41,500 nucleotides of DNA, taken from the NCBI GenBank assembly GCA_032718475.1, contig JAUCBJ010001620.1:1-41500 (forward strand). The letters run 5' to 3'. Within the stretch, counting starts at the first letter, position 1; each line of letters starts with the position of its first letter. Both the position numbers and the translations under genes were made by a program. The notes beneath the pieces are model-generated. The model made no database searches, was not told the DNA's origin, and saw only the letters and a list, made by a program, of their open reading frames with translations. Shown in pieces: positions 6,006 through 41,500 of the stretch. Source of the DNA: Nemertoderma westbladi (taxonomy: Eukaryota; Animalia; Xenacoelomorpha).

Positions 6006-6653
6006 TTAGCAAAGTCCCAACTCAATCAGAGACACAATCACCACACCAACCATTCGACCATATATGGTAGATCCCGCACTGACTGAGGTTGTTGTATCTT
6101 CAGACGATGTTTCAGACGTTTTGGTTGTGGTAACTTCGGATTCGTCCTGATGAAAATCTGAGTGATTCCAATCAATAGAACCGTCGCTATTTTTGTATTC
6201 ATTTTCCCACTGAACGCCTGCCTGAACTATGGCTTCACAGGCATCACTTCCCTGGCAACAGACCTTCTGGCAACGAGCCTTAGTAATGTCCGCAGCTGAT
6301 ATCTCTTGTTGTACATACTGTGTGAAATTCGATTGGTCTCCCGTACAATCTTCCTCATTCAAATCTTTGAGACATTCTGACTCGCACATGTAGTATCGTG
6401 TGTGTCCCAATACTCGTATTATTGGGTTTTGCAGTGGCCCACCCAATACCTGAAAGAAGGTGACTGAACAGGTAGCGCAATCTTCACGAATTTCGCCATC
6501 GGTTGCCAATGGCTGATTTTTGAAGTTAATATTTTTGTCTGGGTCGTTTGCGATGCTCGAACCAAAGGAAAGGTCGTCTTTGCATGTTGCAGTACCGGCG
6601 CCAGCAGTAAGAACTGGTAGGGCGAATACTGCCCATAGAAGTACTGCTTCCAT
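6006..6653 (-). CDS. Cys-rich Ly6/uPAR(three-finger)-like cell-surface protein with predicted GPI anchor, paralogue A (215 aa, single exon)
   Basis: ATG at 6653; hydrophobic signal peptide MEAVLLWAVFALPVLTAGAG; 10 Cys ending CCQGSDAC (compare the LU CCxxDxCN motif); Ser/Thr/Glu stalk; small residues SAG followed by a C-terminal hydrophobic tail. The frame is conserved in paralogue B. The fold assignment is inferred from the Cys pattern only. Confidence 0.82.
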   Translation of the reverse strand: MEAVLLWAVFALPVLTAGAGTATCKDDLSFGSSIANDPDKNINFKNQPLATDGEIREDCATCSVTFFQVLGGPLQNPIIRVLGHTRYYMCESECLKDLNEEDCTGDQSNFTQYVQQEISAADITKARCQKVCCQGSDACEAIVQAGVQWENEYKNSDGSIDWNHSDFHQDESEVTTTKTSETSSEDTTTSVSAGSTIYGRMVGVVIVSLIELGLC

Positions 6654-9600
6654 TGAATATAAAGCAACCACTATATACTGTTATCGACAACAACTATGGA
6701 AGGTCTATAGTGATTTAACCATGTTAATGTTCTAACACAAATCTATTACTTATCGTAGGGGCCTACTGGCATCCAATAGAATATAAAGTAGGCCTACTTG
6801 ACGAAATCAAATCCTCGTTTAGGTATTGATTCAAATCGGGTAAAAAATTCGACATATGCTTTGATGATTCATTAATTGAACCCCGGCCCCTTTATTACAG
6901 TTAAGTAAAATATCTTTAAAATTATTTGCGACTCAACTGAAATAATAAATATATACACTGACATAATTTTAATATTAGGCCTACGCTAAAATCAAATCAG
7001 GGATGCACATAAAATTAAAATACCCAGATTCAAGTTCAATCTACAAAGTCAGTGATCTATCACGCCTTGGCTTGATTGATTCTCTAGATTGCATCTACCT
7101 GACTGCAAATTTTGTGATAATATTAATAATAATTTATATAGCGCCTTTCTGGACATTACTTCTAGGCGCTACTGTATTATGTTGTATTGTATTAGCCTAT
7201 ACAACTGTAGTGATGTTTAAGTAGAGTACTGTATGTTAAATTGCTAGCAATTAATTGTGGTAAGCCAAGCTTCCAGCCTCCTATATGCAATAGTCCTAAT
7301 TAATAATTTTGCCCTCAGCCTATTTAATTTGTAAAATAGAGTAGTTTCATAGTACTACATGAATCTGCACCCACCGAATTTAAAAAATCTGGATCGAAAA
7401 CATGGTAGTGGAGCTGAGTGGCTTAGTGACAAAAGTGGAAAACCAGCCAACATTTTTTTGTAAGTTCCTTTGGGTATATACAATACTGTAGGCGTACAGT
7501 AGATGACAACCAATCCCATGCTCCAAAAAATCCGACAATATTTCATAACGTACTTTCAATTTCATGTTTAGTTCCTTAGCAAACATTGATTTTACATAGC
7601 AAAAAAGTAGCTATTGGTGAGACGTTTCCTAAATTTTGAGAAAACGAACTTTAGTCCAATGACTATCGTACTGGACTGAACTCACTGCAACCTTGTCCCC
7701 TAAAAATATACCCGATGTTTCATAAACTATTGTGATTATTAAAAACGTTGGCAATATTGTGGAATCCCATCTTTCCTCTGTCGTCAGGTGGAGGTTACCA
7801 TTATGATTCGTTGTGAATATCTGGAATTGGAAGGTTGTCATGGAGATCGAAAATGAATGGATATATTACCTAAAATGAATACATCAATCCCAATATTAAT
7901 AAATGTTAAATGGCCGTTAACATTAGTAGAAATTATCAAGTTTCCTTGCAGATCAATTCTATATGTATATTTCTTTAGAATTTCCAGCAATAAATATATG
8001 ATTAACTACAAATATTTTTGGAGCATGTGATTTTTGACATATGCATAGTTACACCTACTCATAAAAATACTTTTGGAAATTTCATCTCAATTTTTTAATG
8101 TGCCACTCCACTATGGCGGACCTCCATTATTTATAAAATAATAAAAAAAAACCATGTGGTGCCCATCCCAGGTGAAAATAAATATTTATTTTAATTCGGT
8201 TTATAATATATTTTAAATTTAGTTATATTTAAAATTGTCGCTAAATTAAGATTACTTTCTACCCACAATATAACACTGCTTAGGCCTACAGTATACCAGT
8301 TTACCGGTCCTGATAGCAGCATTACAATTGACCAGCTAATATTTAACAAATGTACATAACTTATTAAAGGTACCGAAAGGTGGGGGCCGGGCGGTACCTA
8401 CTGTATACCTTGTTAGTGCTGTTAAAAACGAAGTAGTCATATCGTATACCACACAACCTGGAATAGTCAAGGAGTTTCATTTTTTCTTGAAATGTCGGCG
8501 AAATATCTGGGAATATTTCTAAAAAACGATAAATCAGGGAAAAGACGGGAAATTTGATAAACTGGTGATTGATTGATTGACATAGGTGTATGTATTGTAT
8601 AGTATAGGCCTATCATAAGCGAACATGTGTACAATTTTATCTGCTCGTTTCGCCCACCATTCTTATCCATTTACTCACATCACTACCTATGTACATAATA
8701 AGTACACTCTATTTGCTTTTTTATCAATAGGCCTATGGTCTCTTGTGGTAGGAGCCTAGTTTGCCGATATCTTTCTTCATATTAAAAGACTCGCTAACAA
8801 TGTCCCAATGTGTAACAATAGGTTCCACCTTGGTGTAGTGGTCGCATTGAATACAAATTGCATACGCATGAATACACATGCATGCAATTGAATACGCATT
8901 GGACACAAAATTTACTTTTTTTACTTTATTTTATGTCTATGTATTTTTTTTTTGTAATAAAATAAAGCGAGTGAATAAGAAAAAGCGGCCAATATAATAT
9001 ATTTCATAAAAATGTAGTGAGAGAATTTTTTCAAAAACTCAGGGATTGAATTGAACTTTCAATATTTATTTCCTCCTTGGTCCACGGATTGTTGTTTTAA
9101 ATTTCCCTTCATTTGTTGGTTCAAGCGTTTGATAAAATATACCACTGTTTATTATTTCAACGTCTATACAAATGTATAATTCCATTAGTCCAGATAGCCA
9201 GGTTTTCAGTTCTGTTTGAACAGTTCGATGCCGTGTACTGAAGGATACAGTACTACTGTATCTATTGGTCTGAAAACATTTTATACTTTAATTCCTATTA
9301 TAAAGTTTGACAAATTTCAGAATAAAATATTGCGGATTCTGTTTTTAATTTTTTATATGCAATTGGATTTTCAACAGCAGTGTATCGCAGTATCACAATT
9401 TTTGAATAAAACTAAATAAATACATATAGGCAGGCCTACTTCTTGTAAAGTACTTTTCATAGTAATATTTTCACTACATTCATTTTTTTACTCGGATCAG
9501 CAAACTCTAATGTGATAGGCCTAGTTTAATTTTAAACAAAAGTTTGTAAATAGTACATGTTACTCTATAAATTTTAAAGGATGGAAATGTTATTACAATA

Positions 9601-16695: not shown

Positions 16696-17980
16696 AATAA
16701 TATTTTATCATATTATATCTTGTAAAAGCTTTTGCGGATATAATCAGTCCCCTTGCCCGCAAAGTACCGTGTGGGTGTTTTAACGGACATAAAAGTTGTT
16801 TTTCTATATGTGTGCTTTGGAGGACATGGCAAGATACAAAACCCGCAATGCGTCAAATCCTCTAGCACAGTGTAGCCTTGATGATTCAGATTACGACATC
16901 TAACAGCTGGTTGCTGGCATGGAAACGGCCGTTGGACACATGGTTCTTTGTTCAGCTTAATAGCCAATCAGAGCGATTTTTACTTGAGATGTGGAGATAT
17001 CCTACAGATCGTACTAGGCGTGTTCAGTCTTACTGTGTTATAGTTTTGTTGTTTCTATCTAGGCCAAGAACACCGGCTCTAGAGTCAATTCGTTTCAGAC
17101 TTTAGAAGAAACATTAGTAGGCTTAGATTATAGAGCGTATAACTGTTATCAGTCTTATCAGCGATTATTGTATGCCAGCGGTACAATCTTACATTGTTAT
17201 AATCTTAACCTACCGTCTTAATGCTTTTTACTGTTGTCATTATTTGTATCAGTTGGTTGAATATTATTATTTGGAGAACATCGATAAATAACCCAAATTT
17301 CCCAATTTTCTTGATACACTGCAGGTTAGAGAGACAGGTTACATATAGCGATTGCGACTTATATTATCGTGGTTTGTAGTGAATTTAATGCTATTTGATA
17401 GGCACTACATGAGTCAATTGCTGTTCTCTTTATGTATGATAAAATTCATTGACGGTCGGCAGATTAGTGTGCAGTATTATGCGGTACCGGTAGTGTGCAT
17501 GATTGTGGCTGATAACTAAGCATTTCCTAAAGAATGCGCCTCATACGTGAATCATAAGCCTTACCGTCTTACCGTTGTGTTTAGTATAAGTCATAGTTCT
17601 GTTTACCTAGATAGAGCGCCACGTCCTAAAGGAACTGTTAATATTTCCCGAAAGTGAATAATATTCGTCAGAAATTATTTATTAACGATCAATCGAATAA
17701 TACAGTAAGCTTACACTGCAATAAAATCTAAGCCCTCCGAATCCAGTCTCCCGGGTATATCCAGCGGGTGAATGGACGCGCACTAGGCTGGCTTCGGCTA
17801 ATGTTGTGTTTATTGGTATTAAATACTTGTCATATGTTAAAGTCTATTTATAAACCAAAAGACATATAAATTTTGGCAGGTTAAACTGCTAAAGGTCTTC
17901 AAAAGCGCGTACAATAACAGTTATTTTCTTTATTGCAGTAAGCAATAAAGTTGAAAGTACCGGTCGACCGGTAAACCTGA

Positions 17981-18179
17981 ACCGGTACTGCTGTAGGTCC
18001 GTAGGCCCAACTGCCAGAATCGGTACTGCTGTAGGTCCGTAGGCCCAACTGCTTGAACCGGTACTGCTGTAGGTCCGTAGGCCCAACTGCTTGAACCGGT
18101 ACTGCTGTAGGTCCGTAGGCCCAACTGCCAGAATCGGTACTGCTGTAGGTCTGTAGGCCCAACTGTCCTAACCGGTACT
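17981..18179 (+). repeat. 38-bp minisatellite, 5 copies plus a partial, inside the solo LTR
   Basis: Units start at 17981, 18019, 18057, 18095, 18133 and 18171 (ACCGGTACTGCTGTAGGTCCGTAGGCCCAACTGCTTGA). Confidence 0.95.
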
Positions 18180-18344
18180 TCCAGTATAAGAACATTAGTA
18201 TTATTCGATTTGATTATTGTATACCTGTAGGTCTTAGTACTTAATCAGGGAACGGCCGCCCTGGTTTTTTATTGAGATTTTACTTATTTCTATCGGTTTT
18301 ATTTACATGTAAGTTAATATTGAGCAGAAGACGTGTAAGTCTGC

Positions 18345-18925
18345 GCAGATTGTTCAGATAATTGTAGGCTGGACTCTTGTCGGACTGTTGTTGGGTCTGG
18401 AGAGATTGCGGCGTGTGTAGAGTCTGTCCGATAAAGTGCCAGTTAGTAAGTTGGGGCATCTTGAGTTGTAAGGTCAACCCCCTCCTAAAGAATAAGTCGT
18501 ACTACCGTGTTAGAACGCATACTAACTAACCATTTTGGAATCTGCATATACTGTAGTTTATTTAGGCTTGATAGTAGTCTACCAGCGTTTTAGCCTGTGT
18601 TTGTTTGTGTGGTCTGTTCAGGCACCGTAATAGTTATTACTCAGATATTTTGTAGGCTGGATTGTTGTCTGGCTGTTGTTGGGTCTGGAGAGATTGCGGC
18701 GTGTGTAGAGTCTGTCCGATAAAGTGCCAGTTAGTAAGTTGGGGCATCCAGAGTTGTAAGGTCAACCCCCTCCTAAAGAATAAGTCGTACTACCGTGTTA
18801 GAACGCATACTAACTAACCATTTTGGAATCTGCACATACTGTAGTTTATTTAGGCTTGATGGTAGTCTGCCAGCATTTGGTTTGTATTTTGTTTGAGTAT
18901 TCTGTACGGGTAGCGTAATATTTAT
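18345..18925 (+). repeat. Two tandem ~290-bp units in the LTR, each a predicted G.U-rich RNA hairpin
   Basis: Direct repeat at about 18350-18640 and 18640-18925; hand-pairing of the arms is given in the findings. Confidence 0.8.
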
Positions 18926-19078
18926 TATTCAGAGTTTATGCGATTATTCGCAACATTCATGTCCCCAAGTTTATTCCTACAGTAATTGTGCTTGTTACAC
19001 ATACTGGTTGTTCTTTCTCCGGTGTAATAAATAAATTTTATTTTAAATATTGTCACTGTGAAATAATAATAATAATTA

Positions 19079-19590
19079 TTCGATCTACAAATTACTAAGC
19101 TCGAATGTAACATTGCCATTTACAGATTTAAAGGAGCAGGTTATAGAGGCGCGTGTTGGGGGAACCAAAACAATAAACGAAAGTTAACACATGTTACAAG
19201 AATATGCAGGTTACTTTTATTCAAAGGCTGAAAGGAGCAGGTTACAGAGGCGTGTTGGGGGAACCAAAACAATAAACGAAAGTTAACACATGTTACAAGA
19301 TTATGCAGGTTACTTAATTGCGTCTTGGGTCTTTGTTTTGCAGTTTTGTACTCACCAACACCAAACTGTTTCTCCCTGTAAATAAACGAAGCATTTCATC
19401 GGTTAACTCCTGAAATTAAAACACAACTGAAATAAATGCTGAAATGTATGTTACATTCTGACATTCGAGCTTAGTAATTTGTAGATCGAATGTAACATAA
19501 TTGTAGGATCCAATGTAACATACTTGAGGTTACGTTCGATTCGTAAAAACTATGTTACATTCGATCCTGATTACGTTCGGTCTGTCACCC
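19079..19590. mobile_element. Non-autonomous DNA element fragment with CGAATGTAAC-type short repeats, containing two partial arms of the 5458-5881 MITE family
   Basis: TTCGATCTACAAATTACTAAGCTCGAATGT at 19079 is inverted at about 19461-19490; AAGGAGCAGGTTA..GGGGAACCAAAACAATAAACG occurs at about 19130 and 19231. Confidence 0.55.
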
Positions 19591-19845
19591 GCGTCTAAGC
19601 AGTCTGACAAGTCCCTAAAAGGTGCCACCGAGCTCCATAGCGCGGGAAATTCAAATGATTGAAAGACATGTAATTTGTACTGGAAAGGGTGGCAGATCAG
19701 ATCTGCTACCTATATTTTGGCGGTAAATTCTTTAACATTGAATACATGAATAGAGTAAGACTTAAATGTAATTCATTGAATAAGAATAAATTATTTCTTA
19801 TCGGTTTATTAACTCACTCATCCGTTATTGTTGTTGTTTATCTAT

Positions 19846-20667
19846 TCTGGGACTTCGAGCAGCACGTGAACAACTAAACCTGACGTTAACTAGTCTGGGG
19901 CATAGAGCAGCACGTGAACAACTAAACTGGCTGGTTACCTAGTCTGGTACTTCGAGCAGCACGTGAACAACTAAACTGACTGGTTAACTATAGTCTGGGA
20001 CTTCCAGTAGCACGTGAACAACTAAGCTGACTGGTTAACTATAGTCTGGGACTTCCATAGTAGCACGTGAACAACTAAGCTGACTGGTTAACTATAGTCT
20101 GGGACTTCCAGTAGCACGTGAACAACTAAGCTGACTGGTTAACTATAGTCTGGGACTTCCACTAGCACGTGAACAACTAAGCTGACTGGTTAACTATAGT
20201 CTGGGACTTCCAGTAGCACGTGAACAACTAAGCTGACTGCTTAACTATAGTCTGGGACTTCCAGTAGCACGTGAACAACTAAGCTGACTGCTTAACTATA
20301 GTCTGGGACTTCCAGTAGCACGTGAACAACTAAGCTGACTGGTTAACTAGTCTGGGACTTCCAGTAGCACGTGAACAACTAAGCTGACTGGTTAACTATA
20401 GTCTGGGACTTCCAGTAGCACGTGAACAACTAAGCTGACTGCTTAACTATAGTCTGGGACTTCCAGTAGCACGTGAACAACTAAGCTGACTGGTTAACTA
20501 GTCTGGGACTTCCAGTAGCACGTGAACAACTAAGCTGACTGGTTAACTATAGTCTGGGACTTCCAGTAGCACGTGAACAACTAAGCTGACTGGTTAACTA
20601 TAGTCTGGGACTTCCAGTAGCACGTGAACAACTAAGCTGACTGGTTAACTAGTCTGGAACTTCGAGC
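19846..20667 (+). repeat. Expanded 50-52-bp tandem array (~16 copies) in the internal TIR arm
   Basis: TAGTCTGGGACTTCCAGTAGCACGTGAACAACTAAGCTGACTGGTTAACTA units, nearly identical, with no unique spacers. Confidence 0.95.
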
Positions 20668-20924
20668 AAAATTGCAAATTTAGGGGGGGGGGGGGGGAGG
20701 GGGGATCGGGGGATTTGGCTTAACTTCTATCAGTAAAATGCAAAGAACATATTTATTATTTTCTTGTATCAGTTATAATTACATCAGAACATTATAATTA
20801 TAACAATATAGCAGGGAACTGATAGTAAAATATATCGCAGGTAAGCCTACTGTAATAACAATAGGTGTATAATGCTTCTGCCTATACTGCTATATCTGTT
20901 CCAGACATGTACCAGACTATAAAA

Positions 20925-21277
20925 ATAGTTAACCAGTCAGCTTAGTTGTTTAGGTGCTGCTCGAAGTCCCAGACTTGTTAACCAGGCAGCTTAGTTGTAC
21001 ACGTGCTGCTCGAAATCCCAGACTAGTTAACCAGCCAGCTTAGTTTTTCACGTGCTGCTCGAAGTCCTAGACTAGTTAACGTGCTGGTTTAGTTGTTCAC
21101 GTGGTGCTCGAAGCCCCAGACAACCGGTAGTTAGCGTGCTGGTTTAAATGTTCACGTGCTGCTCGAAGTCCCAGACTAGGTAACCAGCCAGTTTAGTTGT
21201 TCACGTGGTGCTCGAAGCCCCAACTACCGGTAGTTAGCGTGCTGGTTTAATTGTTCACGTGCTGCTCGAAGTCCCAG
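20925..21277 (-). repeat. Inverted copies of the 50-bp repeat in the right TIR (~7 copies)
   Basis: TTAGTTGTTCACGTGCTGCTCGAAGTCCCAGA units, the reverse complement of the left-arm units. Confidence 0.9.
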
Positions 21278-21744
21278 AATAGATAAATCAACAACATTAA
21301 CGGATGAGTGAGTTAAACCGATAATAAATAATTTATTCTGATTCAATGAATTACATTCTGACATTGGCAGATTGGTCTTACTCTATTCATGTATTCAATG
21401 TTAAAACAGATTTGAATTTACCGCCAATATATAGGTGGCAGATCTGATCTGCCACCCTTTCCAGTACAAATAACATGTCTTTCAATCATTTGAATTTCCC
21501 GCGCTATGGAGCAGGGTGGCACCTTTTAGGGACTTGTCTGTACTGTGGGTTGCTGGGTTGGGTATGCTGGTATGGTATGGTAATTAAGCAGTAGGTGGAC
21601 TGGTCAACTGTCAACCGGTCCCGGCTCCCGGCTGCCCGGTATTCAGGCCTGTCAGGTATTTTATCAGTGAATATACCCAGATACGATTCGGTAGCCAGGT
21701 AGCTGCTACATGAAGTTATAGGCCTAGGCGCTTACTTTCTTACT

Positions 21745-24434: not shown

Positions 24435-24982
24435 CTAAGGACCACTCTGATACAAAGAGGCCAATGGGCCACAAGACCACACAGTTAGCGCAGATATATG
24501 CTGTAACTGTAAAAAGCAATCTTAGGGCCAGTCAGATACGAAAGCAGTCAATGGGCCACAGGGCCTAGAGGCAACATGTTGCCAAGATGCCACTAATGTT
24601 GCCATAGGGCCACATTTATATGCTGAGAGGTTGCCAATGGGCCACTGCCAATTCTGGGGGGGTGGCACAGTGGCAACATTTATATCAATTATATATATAA
24701 ATATATATATACATAATGAAAATAAAGTAATAGGAAGGCATTTTAAACAACCATATGTTCACTGTTCAGCATGATCCGGTCTCTTAGATACAATTTTGAG
24801 TTGAACGAATTATGTTTTTGACAGACCAATATCAAGCAAGTAAATTTATTTGGAAACAGAGAAACAACATGTTCCTATCTGTTCAACCGTAAGTAGTCAT
24901 CGTTTTATTTAAGCAGGGACGCAAAGCGCAACCCTGTTTAAATACTGTAAGTAAAATTATCACATTGGATACATTTTTGCAT

Positions 24983-25036
24983 ATGTGTTTCGCCGGGATT
25001 TGGCTCATCAGCCACACTAACCCGTGCAGGACACAT
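24983..25036 (-). ncRNA. Type III hammerhead ribozyme, canonical core
   Basis: The minus strand reads AUGUGU-C-CUGCAC-GGGUUA-GUGUGG-CUGAUGA-GCC-AAAUCCC-GGC-GAA-ACACAU: stem III 6 bp, GUC cleavage triplet, stem I 6 bp, stem II 3 bp, all core nucleotides intact. Confidence 0.88.
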
Positions 25037-25326
25037 GTTAATCAAACTAACTACACCAAAAAACAGCTAAACACACACACATACATATAAACAAAATAGT
25101 ATTGCATTCCATTATTTTAAGAGACCGGATCATGCTGAACATGGTTGTATAAAATGCCTTCCTATTATTTTATTTTTATTATAAATAGCAACCATGCACT
25201 AGACAAATTATTTCATATAGTGTTGCTAAGGAAATGATTGCTTATTTGATCTGGAATGCAATACTATTTTGTTTATATGTATGTGTGTGTGTTTAGCTGG
25301 TTTTTGGTGTAGTTAGTTTGATTAAC

Positions 25327-25380
25327 ATGTATCATGCACGGGTTAGTGTAGCTGATGACCCAAATCCCGGCGAAACACAT
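25327..25380 (+). ncRNA. Type III hammerhead ribozyme, degenerate copy
   Basis: AUGUAU-C-AUGCAC-GGGUUA-GUGUAG-CUGAUGA-CCC-AAAUCCC-GGC-GAA-ACACAU: the core is kept, but stems I, II and III each have a mismatch next to the core. Confidence 0.7.
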
Positions 25381-26086
25381 ATGCAAAAATGTAACCAATG
25401 TGATAATTTTACTTACAGTATTTAAACAGGGTTGCGCTTTGCGTCCCTGCTTAAATAAAACGATGACTACTTACGGTTGAACATATAGGAACATGTTGTT
25501 TCTCTGTTTCCAAATAAATTTACTTGCTTGATATTGGTCTGTCAAAAACATAATTCGTTCAACTCAAAATTATAAATATATATAAATATAAATATAGGGC
25601 CTACCTTGGATTCCCTTTTTTTCTCAATAATAGCAAATATTGGAAAGGTCATTCAAGGCCGTTTGGCGACAAAGACCTCAATTTTACAAAAAATGTAATA
25701 ACTCCGCATTTCATTTGGTTTTTTCGAAATCCACGATGCCATATCATGGGATGGAGGACTGGGTCAGGACGGAGGTATTTTTATTAGAAATTTTTGGCAT
25801 TTTCCGAACTAAACCATTGCTAAGATAATATTTACCCACTTGAGAACAGGCAGACAGAGGGACGAATATAATGATACACGGTTGATGTTTGATTTTGCAC
25901 CGAAATAAATGCTGAAGGTCAGTCAACCAATTCTAGTCTCATCCCATACATACATTACAGTTCCATTTTTACTATTTGGTAGACTACATACAAGACAAGA
26001 CAACTATTATAATTATTATTAACTTAAACTTCATAATTACTTTAAATAAAATACCCATCACCAAAATAGTCAATGAAAGGAAAGAG

Positions 26087-26734
26087 TTAGCAAAGTCCCA
26101 ACCCAATCAGAGACACAATCATCACACCAACCATTCGACCATATATGGTAGATCCCGCACTGACTGAGGTTGTTGTATCTTCAGACGATGTTTCGGACGT
26201 TTTGGTTGTGGTAACTTCGGATTCGTCGTGATGAAAATCTGAGTGATTCCAATCAATAGAACCGTCGCTATTTTTGTATTCATTTTCCCACTGAACGCCT
26301 GCCTGAACTATGGCTTCACAGGCATCACTTCCCTGGCAACAGAACTTCTGGCAACGTGCCATAGTAATGTCCATAACTGTGATTTCTTCCTGTGTCTCCG
26401 CTGTGTAACTCTCTTGGTCTCCCGTACACTCTTTCTCATTCAAATCTTTGAGACATTCTGACTCGCACATGTAGTATCGTGTGTTTCCCAATACTCGTTT
26501 CATTGGGTTTTGCAGTGGCCCACCCAATACCTGATAGAAGGTGACTGAACAGGTAGCGCAATCTTCACGAATTTCGCCATCGGTTGTCAACGGCTGATTT
26601 TTGAAGTTAATATTTTGGTCTGGGTCGTTTGCGATGCTCGAACCAAAGGAAAGGTCGTCTTTGCATGTTGCAGTACCGGCACCAGCAGTAAGAACTGGTA
26701 GGGCGAATACTGCCCATAGAAGTACTGCTTCCAT
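26087..26734 (-). CDS. Cys-rich Ly6/uPAR(three-finger)-like cell-surface protein with predicted GPI anchor, paralogue B (215 aa, single exon)
   Basis: ATG at 26734; same length, signal peptide, 10 Cys, stalk and hydrophobic tail as paralogue A; 23 amino-acid differences and no indels or stops. Confidence 0.82.
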   Translation of the reverse strand: MEAVLLWAVFALPVLTAGAGTATCKDDLSFGSSIANDPDQNINFKNQPLTTDGEIREDCATCSVTFYQVLGGPLQNPMKRVLGNTRYYMCESECLKDLNEKECTGDQESYTAETQEEITVMDITMARCQKFCCQGSDACEAIVQAGVQWENEYKNSDGSIDWNHSDFHHDESEVTTTKTSETSSEDTTTSVSAGSTIYGRMVGVMIVSLIGLGLC

Positions 26735-27368
26735 TGAATATAATGCAAACCAATATAATGCTGTTATCGACAATGTCTATGGTGAAAGTCTATGGTGAAA
26801 GTCTATGGTGATATAACCATTTAGGAAACGTTAAGTCCAAATACAAGGGTGAACAGGAATGACATTAAATCGAATCGAATGCAATTTTTCGCTTTTGATT
26901 CCCCATATTTTTCGATTCAAATTCGATTCGGATAAAATTCAACTTTAATTCTTAATCAGCCAAATTATAGTCTATTACTAATTTAATATTATTATAACTA
27001 AAATTTCAAATAAGGATATTCTTATTATAATTCTTGTTTCGATAATTCAAAATTTAAGATAATTGAAAGTGAATAATTGTTTTGTTTTGAAGTGTTTTTT
27101 TATAATTGTTTTTTGACAAAACCTGTTGTACACCGACAATCAGGATACAGCAATTATAATGATATCATAGCCCACATTCCATTCCGGTCATTGACCCCAA
27201 ATGTTAGCCCACGCATTACTGGGCTTTTTTTTTATTTTGTTTGCTAACTTTTAATAATTGATAGGCCTACATTACATGCATAATCTCATAATATTTCGTA
27301 CAATAGATACATTTTATTGCGGTAGCAGACCAAAGAAACATTAAATATTTACCTGCACTCCAGCTGCA

Positions 27369-29648: not shown

Positions 29649-31777
29649 TGTAAAAGCTTTTGCGTAATTAACCGGTTATTTTCCCTTAAAGTACTCTGTA
29701 GTTGGTTTACCAGGCATAAAAGGGCCGTGTCCTTGCTGTACTGGTGTTTTAGAGGACATAAAAGTCATTTCTTCTGTATTTGTACTTTAGAGGACATAAT
29801 CCGCAATCTCGTGACGCGATAAGCTAGATACTCTTGAAAACAGTGTCGCTACCATGACGACGGCTGACAGCTGATATTGCCACGTCGACATTTCTTTGTT
29901 TCTTTGTTCTCTCGTTGTTCGGTTGACCAATCTGAGCGTTTTTTGTCTCTGTGTTGGAGGTGGATACAGAAACTCAGTAGTTCAGTGTTGTGTTTTTGCC
30001 CAGAGCCTAAGAACACCGGCTTTTGGCACCTCCGTATATCAGCATTCTTTAGCTTTACATTAGTAGGCTTAATTATAGAAAGTATATCTGTTATCTAACC
30101 ATACCAATGCAATTCGAGTTAACATACCATATCTATCCATAAATTACTAATATTACTGCTTTTACTGTCGGTTATTCATTATATTTGTTGATGAAATATT
30201 ATATCGGAATACTGATCAATAGTCAGACACCCCACCTTCTTGATATACTAAAGGTTAGAGAGACCGGTTACAGATAAACGATTGCGACCTATGTTAAGTG
30301 GTTTGAAGTGAATCTAATGCTATTTCATAGGCCCGACATAAATTGTATGTTGCTCTCTTTATACGTGACTAAATTTAGTGAAGGTTGGCAGATTAGTGTG
30401 CAGTATTGTGCAGCATTGTGTATGATTGTAACTGATAACAAAGCATCTCCTAAAGAATGCGCCATATACTTAAATCTATAGCTTTTTCGTTGTGTCTAGT
30501 TTAAGTCATAACTCTGTTTACATATTTAGAGCGCCACGTCCTAAAGGAACTGTTAATATTTCCCGAAAGTGAATAATATTTGTCAGAGATTATATATTAC
30601 GATCAGTCGAATAATGCGGTAGGCTTACACCATCAATCATTAAGCTTCCGAATTCAGTCTCCCGGGTATATCCAGCGGGTGAATGATTGCGCATAGACTG
30701 GCTTCGGCTAATGTAGTGTATCAAATACTCGTCATAAGCTAAAGAATATATATCATCTAAAAGACATCCTAATTTGGCAGGTTAAACTGTCAAAGGTCTT
30801 AAAAGCGCAAACAATAACAGATATTGCTTCTGGATTGCGGTGTAAGCAATCTAGTCGAAAGTACCGGTCGACCGGTAACCAGTAGGCCTGACTGCCTGAT
30901 CATCCGGACCGGTACCTACAGTAGTACAGGTACAGCAGTATTATTTGATTGTGGTATTGTATACCGGTAGGCTGTTTAAGAGATTAGGGACTGTACACCC
31001 CTTGTTTCTTTTGGAGCTTACTTATTTCTGTCAGTTTTATTTATTTGTAAGCCAGTATTGAGCAGAAGGCGTGTAAGCCTGCTCAGATTGTACAGATAAT
31101 TTGTAGGCTTGACTGTTGTCTAACTGTTGTTAAGTCTGAACGGATTGCAGTGTGTGTAGAGCATCTGTCCGATGAAGTGCTAGTTAGGAAAGTAGGGGCT
31201 TCAAGTGCTGTGAGGTAAACCCCCTGTGAAAGAATAAGTCGTACTACTGGGTTAGAACGCATACTAACTAATCATTTCGGAGTCTGCATATACTGTAGTG
31301 TATTTGGGCTTGATAGTAGTCTGCCATCGTTTAGTCTGTACTTTGTTTGTGTAGTCTGTACGGGTAGCGTATAATTTTATTTAGATAATTTGTAGGCTGG
31401 ATAGTTGTCTGGCTGTTGTTGGGTTTGAGGAAATTTTGGTGTGTGTAGAGCATCTGTCCGATAAAGTGCTAAGTTAGGAAAGTAGGGGCTTCAAGTGCTG
31501 TGAGGTAAACCCCCTGTGAAAGAATAAGTCGTACTACTGGGTTAGAACGCATACTAACTAATCATTTCGGAGTCTGCATATACCGTAGTTTGTTTAGGCT
31601 TGATAGTAGTCTGTCAGTATTTGGTCTGCATTTTGTTTGAGTAGTTTGTACGCGTAGCGTAATATTTATTATTCAGAGTTTATGCTATTATTCGCAACAT
31701 TCATTCCCCAAGTTTATTCCTACAGTAATTGTGTTTGTTATACATACCGTTATAGTTAAACTAACCCCAGTACTACA
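29649..31777 (+). repeat. Long terminal repeat (2129 bp)
   Basis: TGTAAAAGC...TACTACA; homologous over its length to 16721-19005; internal ~290-bp tandem units at about 31084-31670. Confidence 0.85.
29925..29987 (+). promoter_or_regulatory. Putative LTR promoter (CCAAT box + TCAGT initiator-like motif)
   Basis: CCAATC(T/A)GAGCG and a downstream TTCAGT are conserved at equivalent positions in both LTR copies (about 16964 and 17022 in the solo LTR). Function is inferred only. Confidence 0.4.
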
Positions 31778-32400: not shown

Positions 32401-33632
32401 TCAGGGCTGCTCGGCGTAGGTAAAGACTGGAGATTTTGTGCTTTGGTCACTCCGGCAGATACCGTGGTTCTTTTGGCTGTTCAAGTATTTTTAACTACTG
32501 ATTATTTGTTATACAAGTACTTGTACCTAATTTAGGGTTTAGTGTACAGTGCTTTCCGAAAGCAATTAGTGTGTAGGCAGTGTATTTGTGTTGTAAAGTG
32601 GTTAATAGGCACGTTGGTTCCGGTAGACCGCGGTAATTAACTTCTAGGTAGGGACACTCCGTGATACATAACGTAGTACCTATAGCGATACGGTTATAAG
32701 TCGTCAGGCGGTGGTATTTTCCTATCTGGACAACGCAGTATATTTACTACTACTTATTATTTTCAAATACCGTAGTAATCTGTCCGTTGTAATAACCAGA
32801 TATTCTAACCCTTTGTTAGGCTGGTTAGTAGACTTCTTGTAAAATTACCCTAAAAATTCGTATTTGTGTATTGGTAATTAAATTTTTGTGTTTATTTAGA
32901 GATTGTAATCTCAACCCGAATTGTACGTAATTTGTAGTATTAAGTAACTTAGGTAAATTAGAATTATTTGTTTTAGTGTCTAACAAGTAGCACTCCACTG
33001 AGAGCGCACAGCTTATGTGTAGTGACTCCCCCAGAAATAATAACATTTATTTCAAACATTGACAAAACCCATTAAACGGGTATATATATATTATAAATCA
33101 ACTCAAACGATTTATAAATAGTAGGCCTGCCATATAACAATTAGGTCTCAATATCAGTTGGACTACTGCTCAAATAACGGTAATAAAGTAAGTTAAAGTA
33201 ACCAAGTAACCCTTAAAATTCAGAAATTCAATTATTCTAAAATAATTGACATACCGGTATTTACAATAGGCTTATTATATTTATTTCATAAACTTAGGCT
33301 GAAATCATACCGGTATTCTGTAATTAATTCTAGTTAATAATTATACTTATATATACTATAAGTGTAAACTGCATACCGCTATCCACGATAGGCCTATTAT
33401 ATATTTATATATATTTGTGCTAAAATTATATACCGGTATTCTGTAAAAAACCTAGTCTGTAATAATACTTATATATACCATAAGCATACCGGTATTCTAA
33501 CATTATATATATATATCACGCTACACTGAGTAGCAGTATCGGTGATTAATTACTAGGCTAGCAGTTAATGCTGAATTACTAGACTTGCTTAGACTGTAAT
33601 ATAGCAGTAGGCATTCAACTGTGCAAACAAAC

Positions 33633-35537
33633 ATGTCTGATACTAAGCAGAACCTGTCAGACAGTTTATTAGATGTAACTATCTGCGACTCAGATAAGGG
33701 TGTAGAACCGTCTACACCTAAATTCAGTTCACCTCCCACTGTGAGGAAGGTCATCCCTCCAGTAGTAACAACAGAACCTAGGCTGGTCCAACACCGTAGG
33801 TCTATCATAGGCACTCGAGCTCAGGTCAAGCGGGACCAAGAAGCAGCGGAACAGCAACAACCCGCAAGCCAAGAACTTATTTCTCAGCGGCCCGACAGCT
33901 CCAGTAGTGAAGATACTGTAGAGCTGACACCCGAGCGCGGAGCAAGGATGACGGATGCGGTTTATTCGGATCCCCTTCTCATCCTTCCTGCAGCCGTACT
34001 CACTAGGTTATTGATCGCGGTGGAAGAACACCAGATCGATTGGGCGAGAAGTAAGCGATCAACTAAGGATAGTTATGAGGGATACACAAGGGAAGAACTG
34101 AAGTCTATGGTCGAGTCGCAATGGAACTTCCCCGGACCCGGACTCCCGTTTGATTTATCAGAAGCTGCCTGGGAAGACATACACCGGATGGGAGTAGCCA
34201 AGGAGACCACCGATCCAGCTGTGTGGAAGAGGTCCGCAGCCGGATACGCACAGGGATTCTTCAGCTCTATGGAGCGAGTAGAAAAACAACTGTTTCAACA
34301 ACCCCAAGGACCTCAAGAGCAGGGACAACTGCTTTATCAAGTTAGAGAAAGAATTCTACGAATCAGGCTAATCTTATCAGCCTTTGAGGAGGCTTCTAAA
34401 AGAAGACAAGACACGTCGTTGCAAGTTGCTGTAAAGACTTGGTTTCAACGGGTGAGTCTCCAGGTTCAAGGAACGGCTCAGTGGAAAGCTCAGCTAGAGG
34501 AGCGCTCAACCCATGGAGAATCCACGGATGCTACCTTTTCCCAAGTGGAAAGTGAAGCGACCGCAGAGAAGCCGCATAGGAGGGATGCCATTGACATTTA
34601 TCTGTCAGACTATCAACGTTTTTTAGGTGATGAAGAGTTGAGGAGAAGGTTAGGCGGACTTAGCCCTAATAGTGAAGGAGCCCAGCGTGTGTTGGACGCA
34701 ATCGATGTGGATAGGTTAGCTGCGAACCAAGCTAAATTCAATGAAAGTATCCGCATCGCTAAGGTTCAAGAAGAACAAATAAAGAAAAAACGTATAGAAG
34801 ACAGAAAGATAGCAGCAGTGGCAGAAGCAGAAAGAAAGGCGGCAGTGGCAGAGGCAGAAAGAAAAGCGACCTTGGCAGAAGCAGCGGCAGAAGCGGAAAG
34901 AGAGATAGCGGTGGCAGAAGCAGAACGGAGAGCGGCTGAAGAGATCGCCCAACTGGAGTTGGAAAATCTTCAAGAGAAGCAAGACGACTTCAGTAAACAG
35001 TTTACAGCTAGTAATATGCAGATGATGAATCGATCTACTCCCAAAAGACAGGGTCATACATCATCTGAGGAAGGCGATACCACCGATCCTGAAGGAGGAG
35101 GAAATCGATCTCGCCTAAGCAGACGTAAAAGAATGTCCCACCGTCAGAAATTGCCTGATTTGCCCCCAGCTGTTAGAAGGCAACTAAATAACACAAACTT
35201 AGGTAGTACAGAACCCACAGACCAAATAATTAAAATAGAAAGACTCCCTACTATAGTAGATGAGCCTGAAATAATTAGGCCTGTTCTTGAAATCACCCCT
35301 TCGGTGATAGAGACACCTGTACTCCCAGAACCTACCTTTAAATTCCCTTTACACAGCACCAAATTATCTGTGCCTAGAGGAACAGCCCTTGAAACAGTGT
35401 CGGTCCTGGACTCCGAGCGAAATATAAAGGATATATCGCCCGTAGTCCCTCGTCTGCCCGCTACGACGTTGGCGGATCCCGCTTCGGCGGTTGATTGGGT
35501 GGACGAGAGACGGCGGGGGATGGACATTCTCCTCTGA
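33633..35537 (+). CDS. BEL/Pao 5' ORF or extended Gag N-terminal region (coiled-coil, low complexity)
   Basis: Long open frame from the ATG at 33633 with AEAERKAA coiled-coil repeats; same frame as Gag, separated from it only by TGA-AAG. Confidence 0.75.
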   Translation: MSDTKQNLSDSLLDVTICDSDKGVEPSTPKFSSPPTVRKVIPPVVTTEPRLVQHRRSIIGTRAQVKRDQEAAEQQQPASQELISQRPDSSSSEDTVELTPERGARMTDAVYSDPLLILPAAVLTRLLIAVEEHQIDWARSKRSTKDSYEGYTREELKSMVESQWNFPGPGLPFDLSEAAWEDIHRMGVAKETTDPAVWKRSAAGYAQGFFSSMERVEKQLFQQPQGPQEQGQLLYQVRERILRIRLILSAFEEASKRRQDTSLQVAVKTWFQRVSLQVQGTAQWKAQLEERSTHGESTDATFSQVESEATAEKPHRRDAIDIYLSDYQRFLGDEELRRRLGGLSPNSEGAQRVLDAIDVDRLAANQAKFNESIRIAKVQEEQIKKKRIEDRKIAAVAEAERKAAVAEAERKATLAEAAAEAEREIAVAEAERRAAEEIAQLELENLQEKQDDFSKQFTASNMQMMNRSTPKRQGHTSSEEGDTTDPEGGGNRSRLSRRKRMSHRQKLPDLPPAVRRQLNNTNLGSTEPTDQIIKIERLPTIVDEPEIIRPVLEITPSVIETPVLPEPTFKFPLHSTKLSVPRGTALETVSVLDSERNIKDISPVVPRLPATTLADPASAVDWVDERRRGMDILL

Positions 35538-35540
35538 AAG

Positions 35541-37247
35541 ATGGAGGAGAATCGAGTGCGCTCCTCCCAACAGGTCCGAGAGTTAGAAGGGACTGTTCAA
35601 CAGTTAAAGGGAACCGTAAAGGAAAGTAGGTTAGAGTTGCAAGAAGTGCAGCAAAATATCGCGCTAGAACGTGATAAATTAGTAAATTTACAAAAGGGTA
35701 TACCACCACCCCCTGTAACAATGTGTCAACCTGTTAGGTCTGAAGTATCTCATGCGCAAGGTGTGGAGCCTACACGCATCTATACTGCTAGCGAAGTAGA
35801 AACTCCTATAGTGAACCCTATTAAGAGTAATTATAGACCTGTTGATAATGATATTCCCTATAGACCAGATCATAATCCGAGAAATTTATATACCGATAAC
35901 TCGATATTAAATAACACGATGGCCCAAGAAAGTTTTACGCGTCAAATGGCTAGAACCGAAGCCCGGCAAGCAGTAAAGGTGGGAGAGATCGTCAAGTTCA
36001 ATGGAGATGAGATGAAATGGTTACCTTTTAATGAATATTACAAAGATAACATACAGAACTCTGTACTATCTAATGGAGAGAAACTTAGGTTCCTCATCGA
36101 GTGCTTGGAAGGATCTCCCAAGTTAATGGCGTTAAAGTTTATTGGTCATCCAGACGGATTAAGACAAGTTTGGGATACACTAAACATCAGGTATAGTAAT
36201 AGGAATAACATAGCTGGGTATTTGTATGCAAAGTTAGTAGCGCCCCGAAAGTTTATTAGCAGCGGGATTATAGAGTTTTCCGATGAGATTCAGGAGATCT
36301 GCAGACAATTAGATTGGCTAGGTAAGTCTCATGAGTATCAGAGTGCTATGGTTATTAGAGCAGTGGCTTCTACTTTACCGAAGGGTGGAGTAGGTACACG
36401 CTGGGATAAGAAAGTGTTATATATGATGGAACAACAACGACGAGACCCTACCATGGCTGATCTCATGTCATTCCTAGATGGAGAAGTGAAATTACAGCTC
36501 CTGAAACTGTCCAGAGAGAAGACACCGGAAAACAAGGTAAGTGAAAAACCCGTCTCTAGGAGAAAGGTAACACCAGTGTGTTATACAGATGACGGCGAAA
36601 GCCAGACTTCTCAAGGAGAAGATAGCGGGAAAGACACTGACAGATCTTATTACGTAAATAAAATGCCTAAAGATCAGGTAAGTAAATTCAAGTCTCGAAC
36701 CAATGACAGGAGAGAACAGGTAAGAAGAACTCCTCCTACGTCTCCCAAGAGAATTCAGGTGAGAAAGCCCGAAGAAAAAACAAGTGTACACAATGTTACT
36801 CAGAGTAAGGTGAGTAACATCAAACCGAAATGTGCGCTATGTGATGGGACCCATCGCTTAAATATGTGTGATGAATTTCTAAAGAAATCATTAACTGAGA
36901 GACGTGAAGTCATGTGGGATAAGCGGTTGTGTTATAATTGCCTCAGACAAGGACACCAACGGCGAACCTGTTACTCTGACACAAGATGTGCCAAGTGCGG
37001 TGCGAAACATCATATCTTGTTGCATACTGAATTCGAGCGAAATAGTCCGAGTCAGGTAAGTGATTCCGAACTACATGTCCAATTCAGTGATGTGAACGAC
37101 ACTGATCAATCTGAGATGGAAGGATTCTATACAGACGAGTTCTCCGACGAAAACGAACCCTGTTACATGATAAATACCACAGTGTATCGAGCACTCACTT
37201 ATGAAAAAGATACAGACATTGACCTCGCTCTAACTACTTCTGATTGA
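35541..37247 (+). CDS. gag: BEL/Pao Gag (capsid-like core + zinc knuckles)
   Basis: KFNGD..W..F..LSNGEKLRFL..L.G core; CALCDGTH..C, CYNCLRQGH..C and CAKCGAKHHILLH knuckles. Confidence 0.93.
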   Translation: MEENRVRSSQQVRELEGTVQQLKGTVKESRLELQEVQQNIALERDKLVNLQKGIPPPPVTMCQPVRSEVSHAQGVEPTRIYTASEVETPIVNPIKSNYRPVDNDIPYRPDHNPRNLYTDNSILNNTMAQESFTRQMARTEARQAVKVGEIVKFNGDEMKWLPFNEYYKDNIQNSVLSNGEKLRFLIECLEGSPKLMALKFIGHPDGLRQVWDTLNIRYSNRNNIAGYLYAKLVAPRKFISSGIIEFSDEIQEICRQLDWLGKSHEYQSAMVIRAVASTLPKGGVGTRWDKKVLYMMEQQRRDPTMADLMSFLDGEVKLQLLKLSREKTPENKVSEKPVSRRKVTPVCYTDDGESQTSQGEDSGKDTDRSYYVNKMPKDQVSKFKSRTNDRREQVRRTPPTSPKRIQVRKPEEKTSVHNVTQSKVSNIKPKCALCDGTHRLNMCDEFLKKSLTERREVMWDKRLCYNCLRQGHQRRTCYSDTRCAKCGAKHHILLHTEFERNSPSQVSDSELHVQFSDVNDTDQSEMEGFYTDEFSDENEPCYMINTTVYRALTYEKDTDIDLALTTSD

Positions 37248-40200
37248 CAACCATCTTGGAAAGCGCCAACTTCCAATGTAGGGATTAGAGAATTTCCTGT
37301 GGTACAGGTAAGGGTCCACGGACCAAAAAGGAGTTATGTAGTGAACGCCCTCCTTGACTCCGGTAGTACAGGAACATTCATCGACAAAGAGCTAGCCGAA
37401 GACATATTCGCTGGACAACCCAAGTTCCGAATTAAGCTAAACATGTCAGGGATTATGCAGGTTTGGAAATCTACAGTAACAGCGGATTATTATGTAGGTG
37501 CGTTGTCCACCCCCCAGGACGAACTAGGAGAACATAGCATAAGGTCAGTGAAAATGGTGGCTATAAAGAACTTCGCTACTACTCAAGCAGACCTTTATAA
37601 TTGGGACGAGGATGAGAGCATCCAACATCTTAAGATACCTCGATTCCAGACTGATTATCCTGGAGTGCAAATACTCATCGGCCAAAACGCGCATGAGGCG
37701 CTCGAGACATTGGAGAAACGGCCTGCTCAACCGCAGCCACTACAAACCTATGCGGTAAGAACTAGAGTAGGTTGGTACTTTACTGGCCCTTCCCGTAGAA
37801 CTCTCATGGAAAGATTACCGAAAGATCAGGTATATCAAGTGCGAGAATGGGAAGTTGAGAACAGTGAGTTCGACGATCCAACTGAGGGAACTCCATACTC
37901 CTCAGACAACGACGATATACATCAACTCTTCGATGAGGAGAATGCCATCGATCTCCTTAAGGAAAGCGAGACTTGGCAAAATCAAGTGAACTTATGCCAA
38001 CTCCTTCTCCCATCCGAGCGAGACGACTATAACGACGAGCTTAATGACGTCATTGAACGTTATAATGCCAAGACTCGGGATGAACACGCCGTAAGATTCT
38101 TTACTCAAGAGGTTGTAGAGCCCAACTCCTACGATAAGGCCCTATCGGTGGAGGAAGAAAGAGCCAAGCAGATCCAAGCGACAACTACTCGTTTTCTTAA
38201 AGATCAAGGTAGGTATGAGATCGGACTTCCTTTCCGAAAGCGAGAACCAAAGTTCATTAACAACAGACCTTTGGCGGAGAAAAGAATTGCTCAACTACAT
38301 CGACGCCTTACGGCAAATTCTTCAGCTAAAGAAATGTATCAAACGCAGTTGAAGAAGTTTATTAGCAAGGGATATGCGGAGCTAGTACCGGAAGAAACAC
38401 CCATAACTGAGAGAACGTATTATTTAACTCACCATTACGTTCCCAAACCCGGTAAACCCCATGAAGTACGAGTAGTGTTTGACGGTTCCGCCCTTTATAT
38501 GGGCCAATCTCTTAATTCTGAATTGTTACCCGGACCCAACTTACTTCAATCCTTGTTGGGAATACTATTAAGATTAAGACAATACTCCATTGCTTTCGCC
38601 TCAGATATAGAAGGCATGTTCTTACAAGTCAAAGCGCTGGATAGGGATCGAGATAGTCTACGATTTTTGTGGTGGCCCGAAGGAGACCTCAATAAGAAAC
38701 CGGTGGAGTACTGGATGACCATCCAAGCTTTTGGGATAATCTCGAGCCCTTCAAACGCCTGTTCCGTGGTGCGCACTACTGCGGATGACAACAGAGACGC
38801 CTTCTCTAAAGAGGTGATCGACAATATCAAACGAGACATCTACATGGATGATAATCTGAAGTCCCTTCCATCAGTCGAAGAAGCCATTGAGGTCGCTAAA
38901 GGAATGGTAGAATGCTTAAAGAAAGGTGGATTTCGATTAACTAAATTCACCAGCAACTCCCGTGAGTTTCTGGAGTCGATCCCGGTAGAAGATCGAGGAA
39001 CAAAGGACCTAGATCTAATAAAGGATGATCTCCCAGAAACTAAGACCCTTGGTTTGAAATGGGACACAGAAAGAGATATCCTGTTTTTCCAACTAAAACA
39101 GCGAGATAATCCAGTTCGGACTAAACGGATATGTTTAAGTATCCTGAGCACTTATTTCGATCCATTGGGATTTATTAGCCCAGTTATATTAATTGCTCGG
39201 AGTTTAGTACAACAAATGTGGCTTGAAAACCACTCATGGGACGATCCACTTAAGGGAGAATTATTAAAGAAGTGGATGAAATGGGAAGATTCTCTACCAG
39301 CCATCGAAAACTTTATAATTTCCCGTTCATATTTTGGTCATGTTCTCCCTACGTATTCATATCAACTCCATGTGTTTGGAGACGCCAGCGATATGGGAAT
39401 CGGTATAGTAGCCTACCTAAGGGTGGAAACTCCGGACGGAATTAAAGTCGCCTTGGTTACCTCTAAGGCATTAATAAACAACAAGTTGAAAGTTCCTCGA
39501 GCGGAGTTAAAAGCGGCTCTATACGCTACAGCCATCGGCCGGAATGTAACAGAACAGATCGACTATCCCCTGGAGAAAACTGTCTATTGGACCGACGCTT
39601 TACTCGTGTTGGAGTATATAACCAATGAAGTCTGTCAGTTCAGCGTCTTCGTTACCAACAGAGTAGCTATTATACTCAGTCGCACGACGATGGATCAATG
39701 GAGACATTGCCCCGGAACGATTAATCCAGCGGACATCGCTTCCAGGGGAGCAACTCCACAAGAACTGGTAGATACTCCAGACTGGTTAGGTGGACCCGAC
39801 TTCCTCTACAAAGAAGAAGAAGAATGGCCTCCTCATCTTACTACAGCAGAAATTAGACAGGCCAAGGGAGCGGAGAAAGTCAAGCCTAAAACTCAGGCGA
39901 GTAAATCGAAGTTATTCAAACCCACAGTAGATCTGTCTGTACTACATACTTCCGGAGACGACGCTTTGGATCAGAAACCCACAGCCACAAATAAACCCAT
40001 TGTGGAAATCCGTGATAAGGATTGGAAATCTGGTATACCAGACGTCTCGCAAGGACTCTCACCTCTTCTGCAGAGAGCGATGCATCACTACAGTTCCTGG
40101 AATCGGCTTTGTAAGGCCGTTACATATTTAAAGAGATGTTTTCACCATCACTACTCTGGGATGAAAACAAAGGGTGATACCGCTCCAATCACATCAGTGC

Positions 40201-41500
40201 AGGTCCATGTTATTAAAGACCTTCCTAAATATAAGGTACCCGACAAGTTTCTGAAGGAGAAGATCAGTTATCAGGAGCATGAAGAAACCAACAAACAGAT
40301 GCTGAGACTCTTACAATGCTATGAAGATTCCGATAAGTATTTCCTGTTGTTGAGAAATCCACAGATGCGCTTAAGGGATCGTTTCTCTAGCACAATGATA
40401 GATGGGTTGATACGTGTTGGAGGAAGGTTAACGAATGCCCCATTATCCTTTGATACTAAGTTCCCCATACTCATTAGAAATCTTGAAATACAAGTCAAGA
40501 TGATTGTAGATGTTCACAGCAAACTTTATCATGCTGGTAGAGAACGAGTTCTTAGCGAAATTCGAACTCGCTATTATTTTTATAAACCCCGTAGAGCTCT
40601 GAACCAAGTTCTTAGGAACTGTATACCCTGTAAGAGAGCATTCAGTAGGCCTTTAACACAGAGAGAGGCAGAATTACCTAGGGAACGAGTAAGCTTTTAT
40701 GAACCACCCTTTACTAATACCGGTGTGGATTTATTTGGCCCTATTGAAGTATATCGTGCTAGGACTATAGTCAAGAGATGGTGTGTAATCTTTGTTTGTA
40801 TGACTTGTAGAGCCATCCATCTCGATATGGTGAACGATTTATCTACCAACAGCTTTCTATTAAGCTTACGACGACAGATCGCTCGCTTTGGCACTAGTAA
40901 CACGATGAGATCTGATAAGGGAACAAACTTCATTGGTGCCAACAATGAAATCAAAGCTTACGTCAAAGATTGGAACCAAAGACAGGTGGACGACCAACTA
41001 CGAGTAACAGCGTCTAGTTGGACCTTCAACGCCGCCGACGCCCCTTGGTGGGGAGGAAGTTGGGAGAGATTAATAAGAAGTGTGAAGACGGCATTTCATT
41101 TTATAGTGCCTTGCCGCGCTTATCTCACCGACGAACTTTTGCGGACGTTAATGGAAGAAATCGCCGCCTATCTCAACGAGAGACCGCTTATGCCAGTCTC
41201 ATCGAGTCCCGATTCCCTGGAAGCGCTAACACCCGCGCACTTCCTACTGAAGAAACCTGTAGCCATGCTCCCACAATCGGAAATCACAGACGGAGACGAA
41301 TACTGCCGACAAACTTGGCAACTCATGCAGTTGTTATCCCGTCGTTTCGCTGACCATTTCGAAAAACATTATCTGCCCACGCTACAACTTCGAACTAAGT
41401 GGTTTGCGCAGCAAGAAAACGTTAGCGCTGGAGACATGGTTCTTATTGTGGATGTAGATCTTCCACGTAAGAGGTGGCAGTCAGGTCGTATCATCGAGAC
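37248..41500 (+). CDS. pol: BEL/Pao Pol (protease, RT, RNase H, integrase); partial and absent from the ORF track because it runs off the edge
   Basis: Same frame as Gag: ALLDSGS (~37347), RVVFDGSA, SDIEGMFLQV, YMDD (38841), LHVFGDAS, PRAEL, NPADIASRG, HHCC finger, TGVDLFGP, SDKGTNF and PWWGGSWERLIRSVK (~41040). The motifs checked are in one frame and the ORF track shows no stop-terminated piece in it. Confidence 0.95.

Follow-up and report, generated by a model that had tools for sequence, protein, structure and literature searches.

The window, by which we mean the entire 41.5-kb stretch of DNA analysed, carries a BEL/Pao retrotransposon on its forward strand (Table 1). Downstream of a long repeat, copy B, and on its strand come an AT-rich stretch of 1.2 kb and then an orphan frame, gag and pol. 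The gag translation shows three Cys/His knuckles. The profile matches of pol (PF05380 at E 4e-36, PF17921 and PF18701) are those of a Pao-type pol with integrase, and 49 of the 52 homologues listed bear a Pfam label, mostly PF05380, or no label. The closest proteins are about 40% identical, the named ones coming from cnidarians, a crinoid and crustaceans. The element family is very abundant in its host, with 13,053 contigs of run X1 and 3,047 of run X3 aligning to 1.85 kb.

The extra frame of 645 codons before gag sets this element apart from described BEL/Pao elements. Its protein (634 residues, 33633-35534) contains an Ala/Glu-rich stretch and an arginine-rich stretch, and has no Pfam family, homologue or Atlas hit. 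The orphan frame, gag and pol share one reading frame, with a single TGA at 35535-35537 and at 37245-37247; these codons may reflect decay or natural stop read-through. Elsewhere in the window lie a LINE-type endonuclease/reverse transcriptase frame of 967 codons (167-3070, reverse strand; closest proteins 34-40% identical) and an 830-base repeat (5888-6713 and 25988-26798, 90% identical), whose reverse-strand frames of 224 and 229 codons have no Pfam match.

Table 1. Coordinates of the element, its repeat copies and the rod units within the window
Feature	Position	Strand	Basis or remark
Copy A of the rod-bearing repeat	16721..~18990	+	Similarity to copy B from TGTAAAAG, fading past ~18990
Candidate TATA	17849	+	Motif scan; TATA-like counterpart in copy B at 30747
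Candidate AATAAA	17944	+	Motif scan; copy A
Perfect 16-nt palindrome TACCGGTCGACCGGTA	17958..17973	.	Identical in copy B (30862-30877)
Rod unit A1	18340..18625	+	Core helix and outer helix, apical domain in between; helix counts, RNA folds
Rod unit A2	18628..18913	+	288 bases 3' of A1
Copy B	29649..31777 (~2.1 kb)	+	TGTA start, TACA end
Rod unit B1	31079..31366	+	
Rod unit B2	31368..31657	+	
Rod unit B2'	31991-32280	+	Inside the 459-base duplicate 31942-32400
Orphan frame, 645 codons, upstream of gag	33600..35537	+	First ATG 33633
BEL/Pao gag	35538..37247	+	DUF1759, PF03564 E 1e-10
BEL/Pao pol	37248..41498, past window edge	+	Peptidase_A17, Integrase_H2C2, DUF5641

The two repeat copies and their ends

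The rod-bearing repeat is likely an LTR, because the similarity between copies A and B begins at a common TGTAAAAG and copy B ends in TACA. Both copies start with TGTA, and TACA occurs at 31777 and at 32400. By sequence, copy B is likely the 5' LTR of the BEL/Pao element; copy A probably comes from a related subfamily, as an LTR that is either solo or truncated. The two are 59-99% identical depending on the part compared. The 3' end of copy A is a soft limit, set by the fading of similarity at about 18990. No target-site duplication was found around copy A, the window holds no 3' LTR (it would lie beyond the edge), and no primer-binding site of tRNA-Arg or tRNA-Gly type was recognised by eye past 32400; the LTR ends are therefore those that we infer. 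The window contains 0 tRNA genes, so it offers no host tRNA for comparison with a primer-binding site. At about 2.1-2.3 kb, the LTR lies near the top of the BEL/Pao range, for which supplement 9 of PMC3118150 gives a median of 383 and a maximum of 2,427.

Each LTR carries two tandem rod units. The initial annotation had noted this correctly, and had also counted 31942-32400 as a further occurrence. That segment is a 459-base local duplicate, differing from 31319-31777 in 3 places; it comprises one full unit and the tail of the other, and is thus not independent. Between the duplicates, about 165 bases (31778-31941) have a depth several hundred-fold below that of their flanks.

The candidate TATA and AATAAA sit 400-500 bases upstream of the rods. 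Given the usual order of LTR motifs (PMC3601003), this placement suggests that the rods likely belong to U5 and the leader, where they would lie in the 5'-terminal part of the genomic RNA and be reverse-transcribed early; placement in U3 instead is still conceivable. An AATAAA is absent at the matching place in copy B. The TACCGGTCGACCGGTA palindrome lies just upstream of the rods in both copies and could be a site of dimerisation or of protein binding. The ACCGGT at its core is found again in a 38-base tandem repeat, an array present in copy A only (17978-18179), and the leader has four further occurrences at 33253-33488. The stretch at 30850-31080, upstream of the rods in copy B, is itself structured (z -3.2); its copy A counterpart gives no such signal (z -0.45).

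The identities of the parts record something of the units' history. Between corresponding units of the two LTRs, the basal 5' part matches at 37 of 44 positions (A1/B1), against 29 of 44 between the two units of copy A (A1/A2). The tandem duplication thus predates the split of A and B, since the basal 5' parts are specific to a unit yet common across LTRs. The apical domain behaves otherwise, with 117 of 119 positions identical in A1/A2 and 121 of 122 in B1/B2, and only about 100 of 119 (~85%) between LTRs; judged from these identities, apical domains are homogenised within each LTR. The stretch directly 3' of the second unit is also highly conserved (73 of 74), and apical conservation therefore does not stand out in this terminal part of the LTR.

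Folding of the units in sense RNA

The initial annotation had paired two helices of unit A1 by hand and followed both into the diverged copy B, and its counts hold. The core helix, 18382-18421 with 18541-18580, pairs at 38 of 40 positions (21 Watson-Crick and 17 G·U, with one C·A and one other mismatch), and the outer helix, 18345-18370 with 18592-18617, pairs at 24 of 26 with 10 G·U on an exact recount. Their equivalents in copy B pair at 36 of 40 (31121-31160 with 31283-31322; 13 G·U, 2 A·C) and at 24 of 26 (31084-31109 with 31333-31358; 8 G·U). The second unit has its own basal stem, as had also been noticed: A2 is closed by TACTCAGA with TTTGAGTA, unlike A1.

Folding against shuffled controls, a check that the annotation had proposed, bears out its central idea of an RNA-level rod that exists in the sense strand and is invisible as a DNA palindrome. 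As forward-strand RNA, A1 (18340-18625) folds at -94.7 kcal/mol (z -3.5; 1 of 200 shuffles as good), and as reverse-strand RNA at -53.9 kcal/mol (z +0.26). All five full units give z-scores of -2.7 to -6.2 on the forward strand and of -0.3 to +2.3 on the reverse strand, with 40 shuffles per unit. When DNA parameters are used, 0 of the 4 tested units clearly beat their shuffles on either strand. Comparing G·U with A·C is an established way to tell which strand a structure is read on (PMC1892782). Each 290-base unit is predicted to form, in sense RNA only, a rod of about 70 in-register pairs topped by an apical domain.

The same asymmetry appears across the locus. A G·U-aware scan of the whole 41.5-kb window for in-register helices of 30 pairs (at least 27 paired, at least 8 G·U) returned 10 diagonals on the forward strand, every one among the rod units, and 0 on the reverse strand. 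A DNA repeat finder did not have the rod arms among its 25 longest inverted pairs. MITE-like ordinary DNA inverted repeats serve as controls, showing on both strands with few G·U; they lie at 24789-25574, 5527-5826 and 19606-21538, and one of them contains internal arrays of 49/51 bases.

The apical domain is less certain, as single-sequence and alignment folds disagree about it. The stem proposed by the initial annotation, AGTTAGTA with TACTAACT around GGGG/CCCC, is present in the A1 fold, whereas the apex takes another form in the B units and in the alignment fold.

G·U pairs are frequent in the rods, although the earlier description of the helices as dominated by them was overstated. Across four units, A1 being entered by its core only owing to a 1-base indel, the in-register rod has 49 G-C cells, 88 A-U cells and 93 G·U cells; A·C accounts for 4 of the mismatches, and the remaining 21 are of other kinds. 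G·U thus makes up 93 of 230 pairs, or 40%, which is no majority, and the minimum-energy folds hold 29-32 G·U among about 106 pairs per unit. The observed shares of 21% GC, 38% AU and 40% GU compare with 20/46/35% under a null in which every allowed pair is equally acceptable and bases follow the LTR's own composition. The high G·U share lies near this expectation and so needs no special process. Deliberate spacing of G·U to break up Watson-Crick runs is not established: the longest runs are 4, 6, 4 and 3, and run lengths fall below chance in B2 alone (P 0.015; P 0.09-0.76 in the other three units).

Substitutions and the maintenance of pairing

Variation between copies mostly keeps the register, in line with the earlier observation on the diverged LTR. 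In columns with an invariant partner, transitions that keep the pair occur at 18 of 70 and those that break it at 2 of 26 (one-sided P 0.043); for pyrimidines alone the counts are 8 of 30 and 1 of 17 (P 0.08). Pairwise simulations found fewer broken pairs than expected in four of eight comparisons (P 0.003-0.024), and the four that were not significant (P 0.21-0.41) are all those with A1. The full-length sequences underlying these unit comparisons come from two lineages, copies A and B.

Family variants from public assemblies point the same way. They number 36 within the units, 22 from a complete table and 14 among 40 of 290 rows, and they partly repeat differences between the units of the window, so they are not fully independent of it. 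The rod itself contains 21 of them: 13 keep a pair, 4 gain one, 2 break one and 2 stay mismatched, so that 17 of 21 end paired. When only distinct rod variants are counted, 15 of 19 end paired, against an expectation of 38-41% (P about 0.001-0.003), and the complete table by itself gives 7 of 9 (P 0.025-0.05). When all 36 are placed on each unit's own minimum-energy fold, 16 keep a pair, 10 break one (5 of these in the apical domain) and 10 are unpaired.

Covariation is weak. Two-sided changes occur at 3 of 67 pairs, a count reached in 71 of 500 shuffles; the covariation score is matched by 5 of 500 shuffles, a level that relatedness alone can give. Double changes are nonetheless seen, including a U-A/A-U swap at columns 17/276, of which deamination cannot be the source. 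Taken together, the evidence for selection on pairing is moderate and not decisive, and such selection appears to fit the differences between copies best.

Origin and possible role of the rods

Other origins could leave a similar pattern. The rods might be what remains of an ancient perfect inverted repeat, altered by strand-biased RNA-level mutation (A-to-G and C-to-U) that reverse transcription fixed, with little present function. G·U without A·C would also arise from A>G and C>U changes in one direction only, in keeping with 93 G·U cells and just 4 A·C, the G/T skew of the strand extends past the rods, and weak two-sided covariation is what a relic would leave. We consider this origin rather unlikely, since single-row one-sided changes run towards G·U at 6 pairs and away from it at 5 (a crude polarity), G>A and T>C occur at G·U pairs among the low-share family variants, and the register outlasts 15-25% divergence; selection would be needed in any case for the transversion double changes and for the refitted basal stem of the second unit. 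The initial annotation had offered a more specific alternative, in which the G·U pairs are the footprint of ADAR hyper-editing alone, again fixed by reverse transcription. ADAR prefers the UAG context and cannot make C/U changes. Several variable A/G sites do lie in UAG or UAAG, and U is the commonest 5' neighbour of G in G·U pairs, but U also takes first or joint first place among the bases 5' of unedited paired A in all four units, and among those 5' of G in G-C pairs in three of the four. A pure footprint is improbable as the main cause because, where the partner is G, C/U changes occur (8 of 30 columns) no less often than A/G changes do where the partner is U (10 of 40), the flux runs both ways, and five to eight paired UAG adenosines persist in each unit (5/13, 5/22, 7/27 and 8/26). 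The directional A>G excess with ADAR's neighbour preference that the annotation had proposed to look for did not emerge, and editing may have made some contribution without being the main cause.

Endogenous hairpin-RNA siRNA loci form a long hairpin as RNA and not as a DNA inverted repeat. The rods could similarly be element-encoded precursors of siRNAs or miRNAs, or dsRNA decoys, in which G·U preserves a Dicer substrate without a DNA inverted repeat, a role that we regard as possible but unlikely. Of 39 columns, 6 vary in the 3' core arm and 14 in the 5' arm (P 0.068; the weight of tolerated changes is similar for both), as expected if the 3' arm were a guide, and summed contig depth is greater over the loop and the 3' arm, a measure that does not rank the parts. 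Engineered G·U hairpins have also been shown to yield siRNAs in an arthropod, and serve to reduce self-silencing (PMC13527466). These engineered RNAs resemble the rods in forming a long hairpin as RNA with no DNA inverted repeat; the rods differ in carrying G·U on both arms and a large conserved apical domain. Against a precursor role, the rest of the window offers no pairing target for either arm or for the apex that exceeds those of shuffled queries, LTR-derived siRNAs would match the element itself, and there is no Rfam match. The apical domain, of about 120 nt, is branched and homogenised between units, and a plain precursor needs no such domain. The rods might instead control LTR transcription, 3' end formation (for instance by hiding or exposing poly(A) or splice signals) or translation of a long leader. 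The candidate AATAAA lies about 400 bases upstream of them, both copies have a donor-like GTAAG immediately 5' of unit 1, and motifs resembling acceptors occur near the unit bases in copy B and A2; such short motifs are, however, frequent by chance, and a start-stop codon pair upstream of A1 is missing in copy B, which leaves this the least credible of the roles considered.

The reading that we favour, with a probability of roughly one half, is that the rods are a selected cis-acting RNA scaffold in the element's transcript, likely in its U5/leader, for packaging, dimerisation or export. Selection would act on the shape of the helix and not on its strength, so that G·U could drift up to about the share that base composition allows. 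The minus-strand cDNA, with A·C mismatches in place of G·U, and the integrated DNA would then offer no usable inverted repeat. This would let the rods come through reverse transcription, a step at which a long perfect hairpin would be cut back; in HIV-1, an inserted perfect hairpin of 300 bp prevented replication, and evolution shortened it (PMC1819390). Two genomic RNAs could also pair in trans, since the arms of either unit pair equally well: arm duplexes across units have energies of -64 to -71 kcal/mol, like those within units. Any binding partner is a guess at present, with Gag, the upstream orphan protein (a candidate partner) or a host export factor as options.

Structured cis elements of retroelements (PMC3856414) and functional G·U-rich rods (PMC7102988) are already known. 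The CTE of MPMV and the direct repeats of RSV are likewise structured, at times duplicated, non-coding elements in genomic RNA, and have a tested function and a known bound factor (NXF1 for the CTE) (PMC3856414). Like CTE/RTE-type elements, the rods are, by prediction and with weak covariation, a conserved structure in sense genomic RNA; they are longer than the MPMV and RSV elements, lie in the LTR, contain about 40% G·U and match no Rfam family. Potato spindle tuber viroid is also a non-coding rod, in which G·U pairs are kept like Watson-Crick pairs and matter for replication (PMC7102988). It is a circular autonomous RNA with 17 G/U in 359 nt, in contrast to about 30 in 290 nt here within part of an LTR. 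The element as a whole resembles BEL/Pao (Belpaoviridae) in its DUF1759 Gag, its Pao-type pol with integrase and its upstream LTR-like repeat; LTR RNA rods are described in neither PMC8742986 nor PMC3118150, as far as their available text goes, and the terms 'hairpin' and 'secondary structure' have 0 occurrences in the main text of the latter. As the initial annotation had supposed, no description of such rods in BEL/Pao LTRs was found in the literature covered, a body that leaves out most subscription journals and repeat-database annotations.

From metagenome contigs, the best 80 of 419 relatives were kept, amounting to 579 kb, of which about 136 kb lie outside long forward-strand frames. Among these 80 distant BEL/Pao loci, 0 carry a G·U-rich helix and none shows DNA similarity to the LTR or leader; long-range direct repeats of any kind occur in only 25 of the 80 and are mainly short, and full LTRs are missing from most loci. 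The absence from all 80 suggests, as a weak negative, that the rod is not a general need of the BEL/Pao group. An exact search of the metagenome contigs for the conserved apical pattern gave 0 matches, and the viral contigs contained no relative. Rfam 15 covariance models gave 0 hits at gathering score in the window and 0 at E up to 5 in 16700-19100, and identification as a ribozyme, tRNA or Rfam family was rejected, with no match to any. Two short motifs were also discarded: CCGATGA in B1, which we take to be hammerhead-like, is not kept in the other four units, and ATTTTGG in copy A, presumably Sm-site-like, reads ATTTCGG in copy B.

The replication of BEL/Pao elements is poorly understood according to their ICTV profile (PMC8742986), and their cis-acting RNA signals are little known. 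On the folding and comparative evidence presented here, the two tandem 290-base units in the probable LTR of an abundant BEL/Pao element are likely a selected RNA signal, and the rod offers a concrete, probe-ready candidate of 290 nt. Long RNA helices in repeats can escape searches for DNA inverted repeats, and the G·U-aware scan that found the rods is applicable to repeat libraries. The thousands of diverged family copies provide a natural experiment on the build-up of G·U under selection for pairing only. A more speculative extension, which we hold to be doubtful, is that the rods act as a 'DNA-invisible' dsRNA: held together by wobble pairs and existing only as RNA, they would escape deletion in reverse transcription and could serve as a small-RNA source or as a decoy against the host's RNA silencing, maybe together with the orphan protein. 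If true, this may explain the very high copy number of the family.
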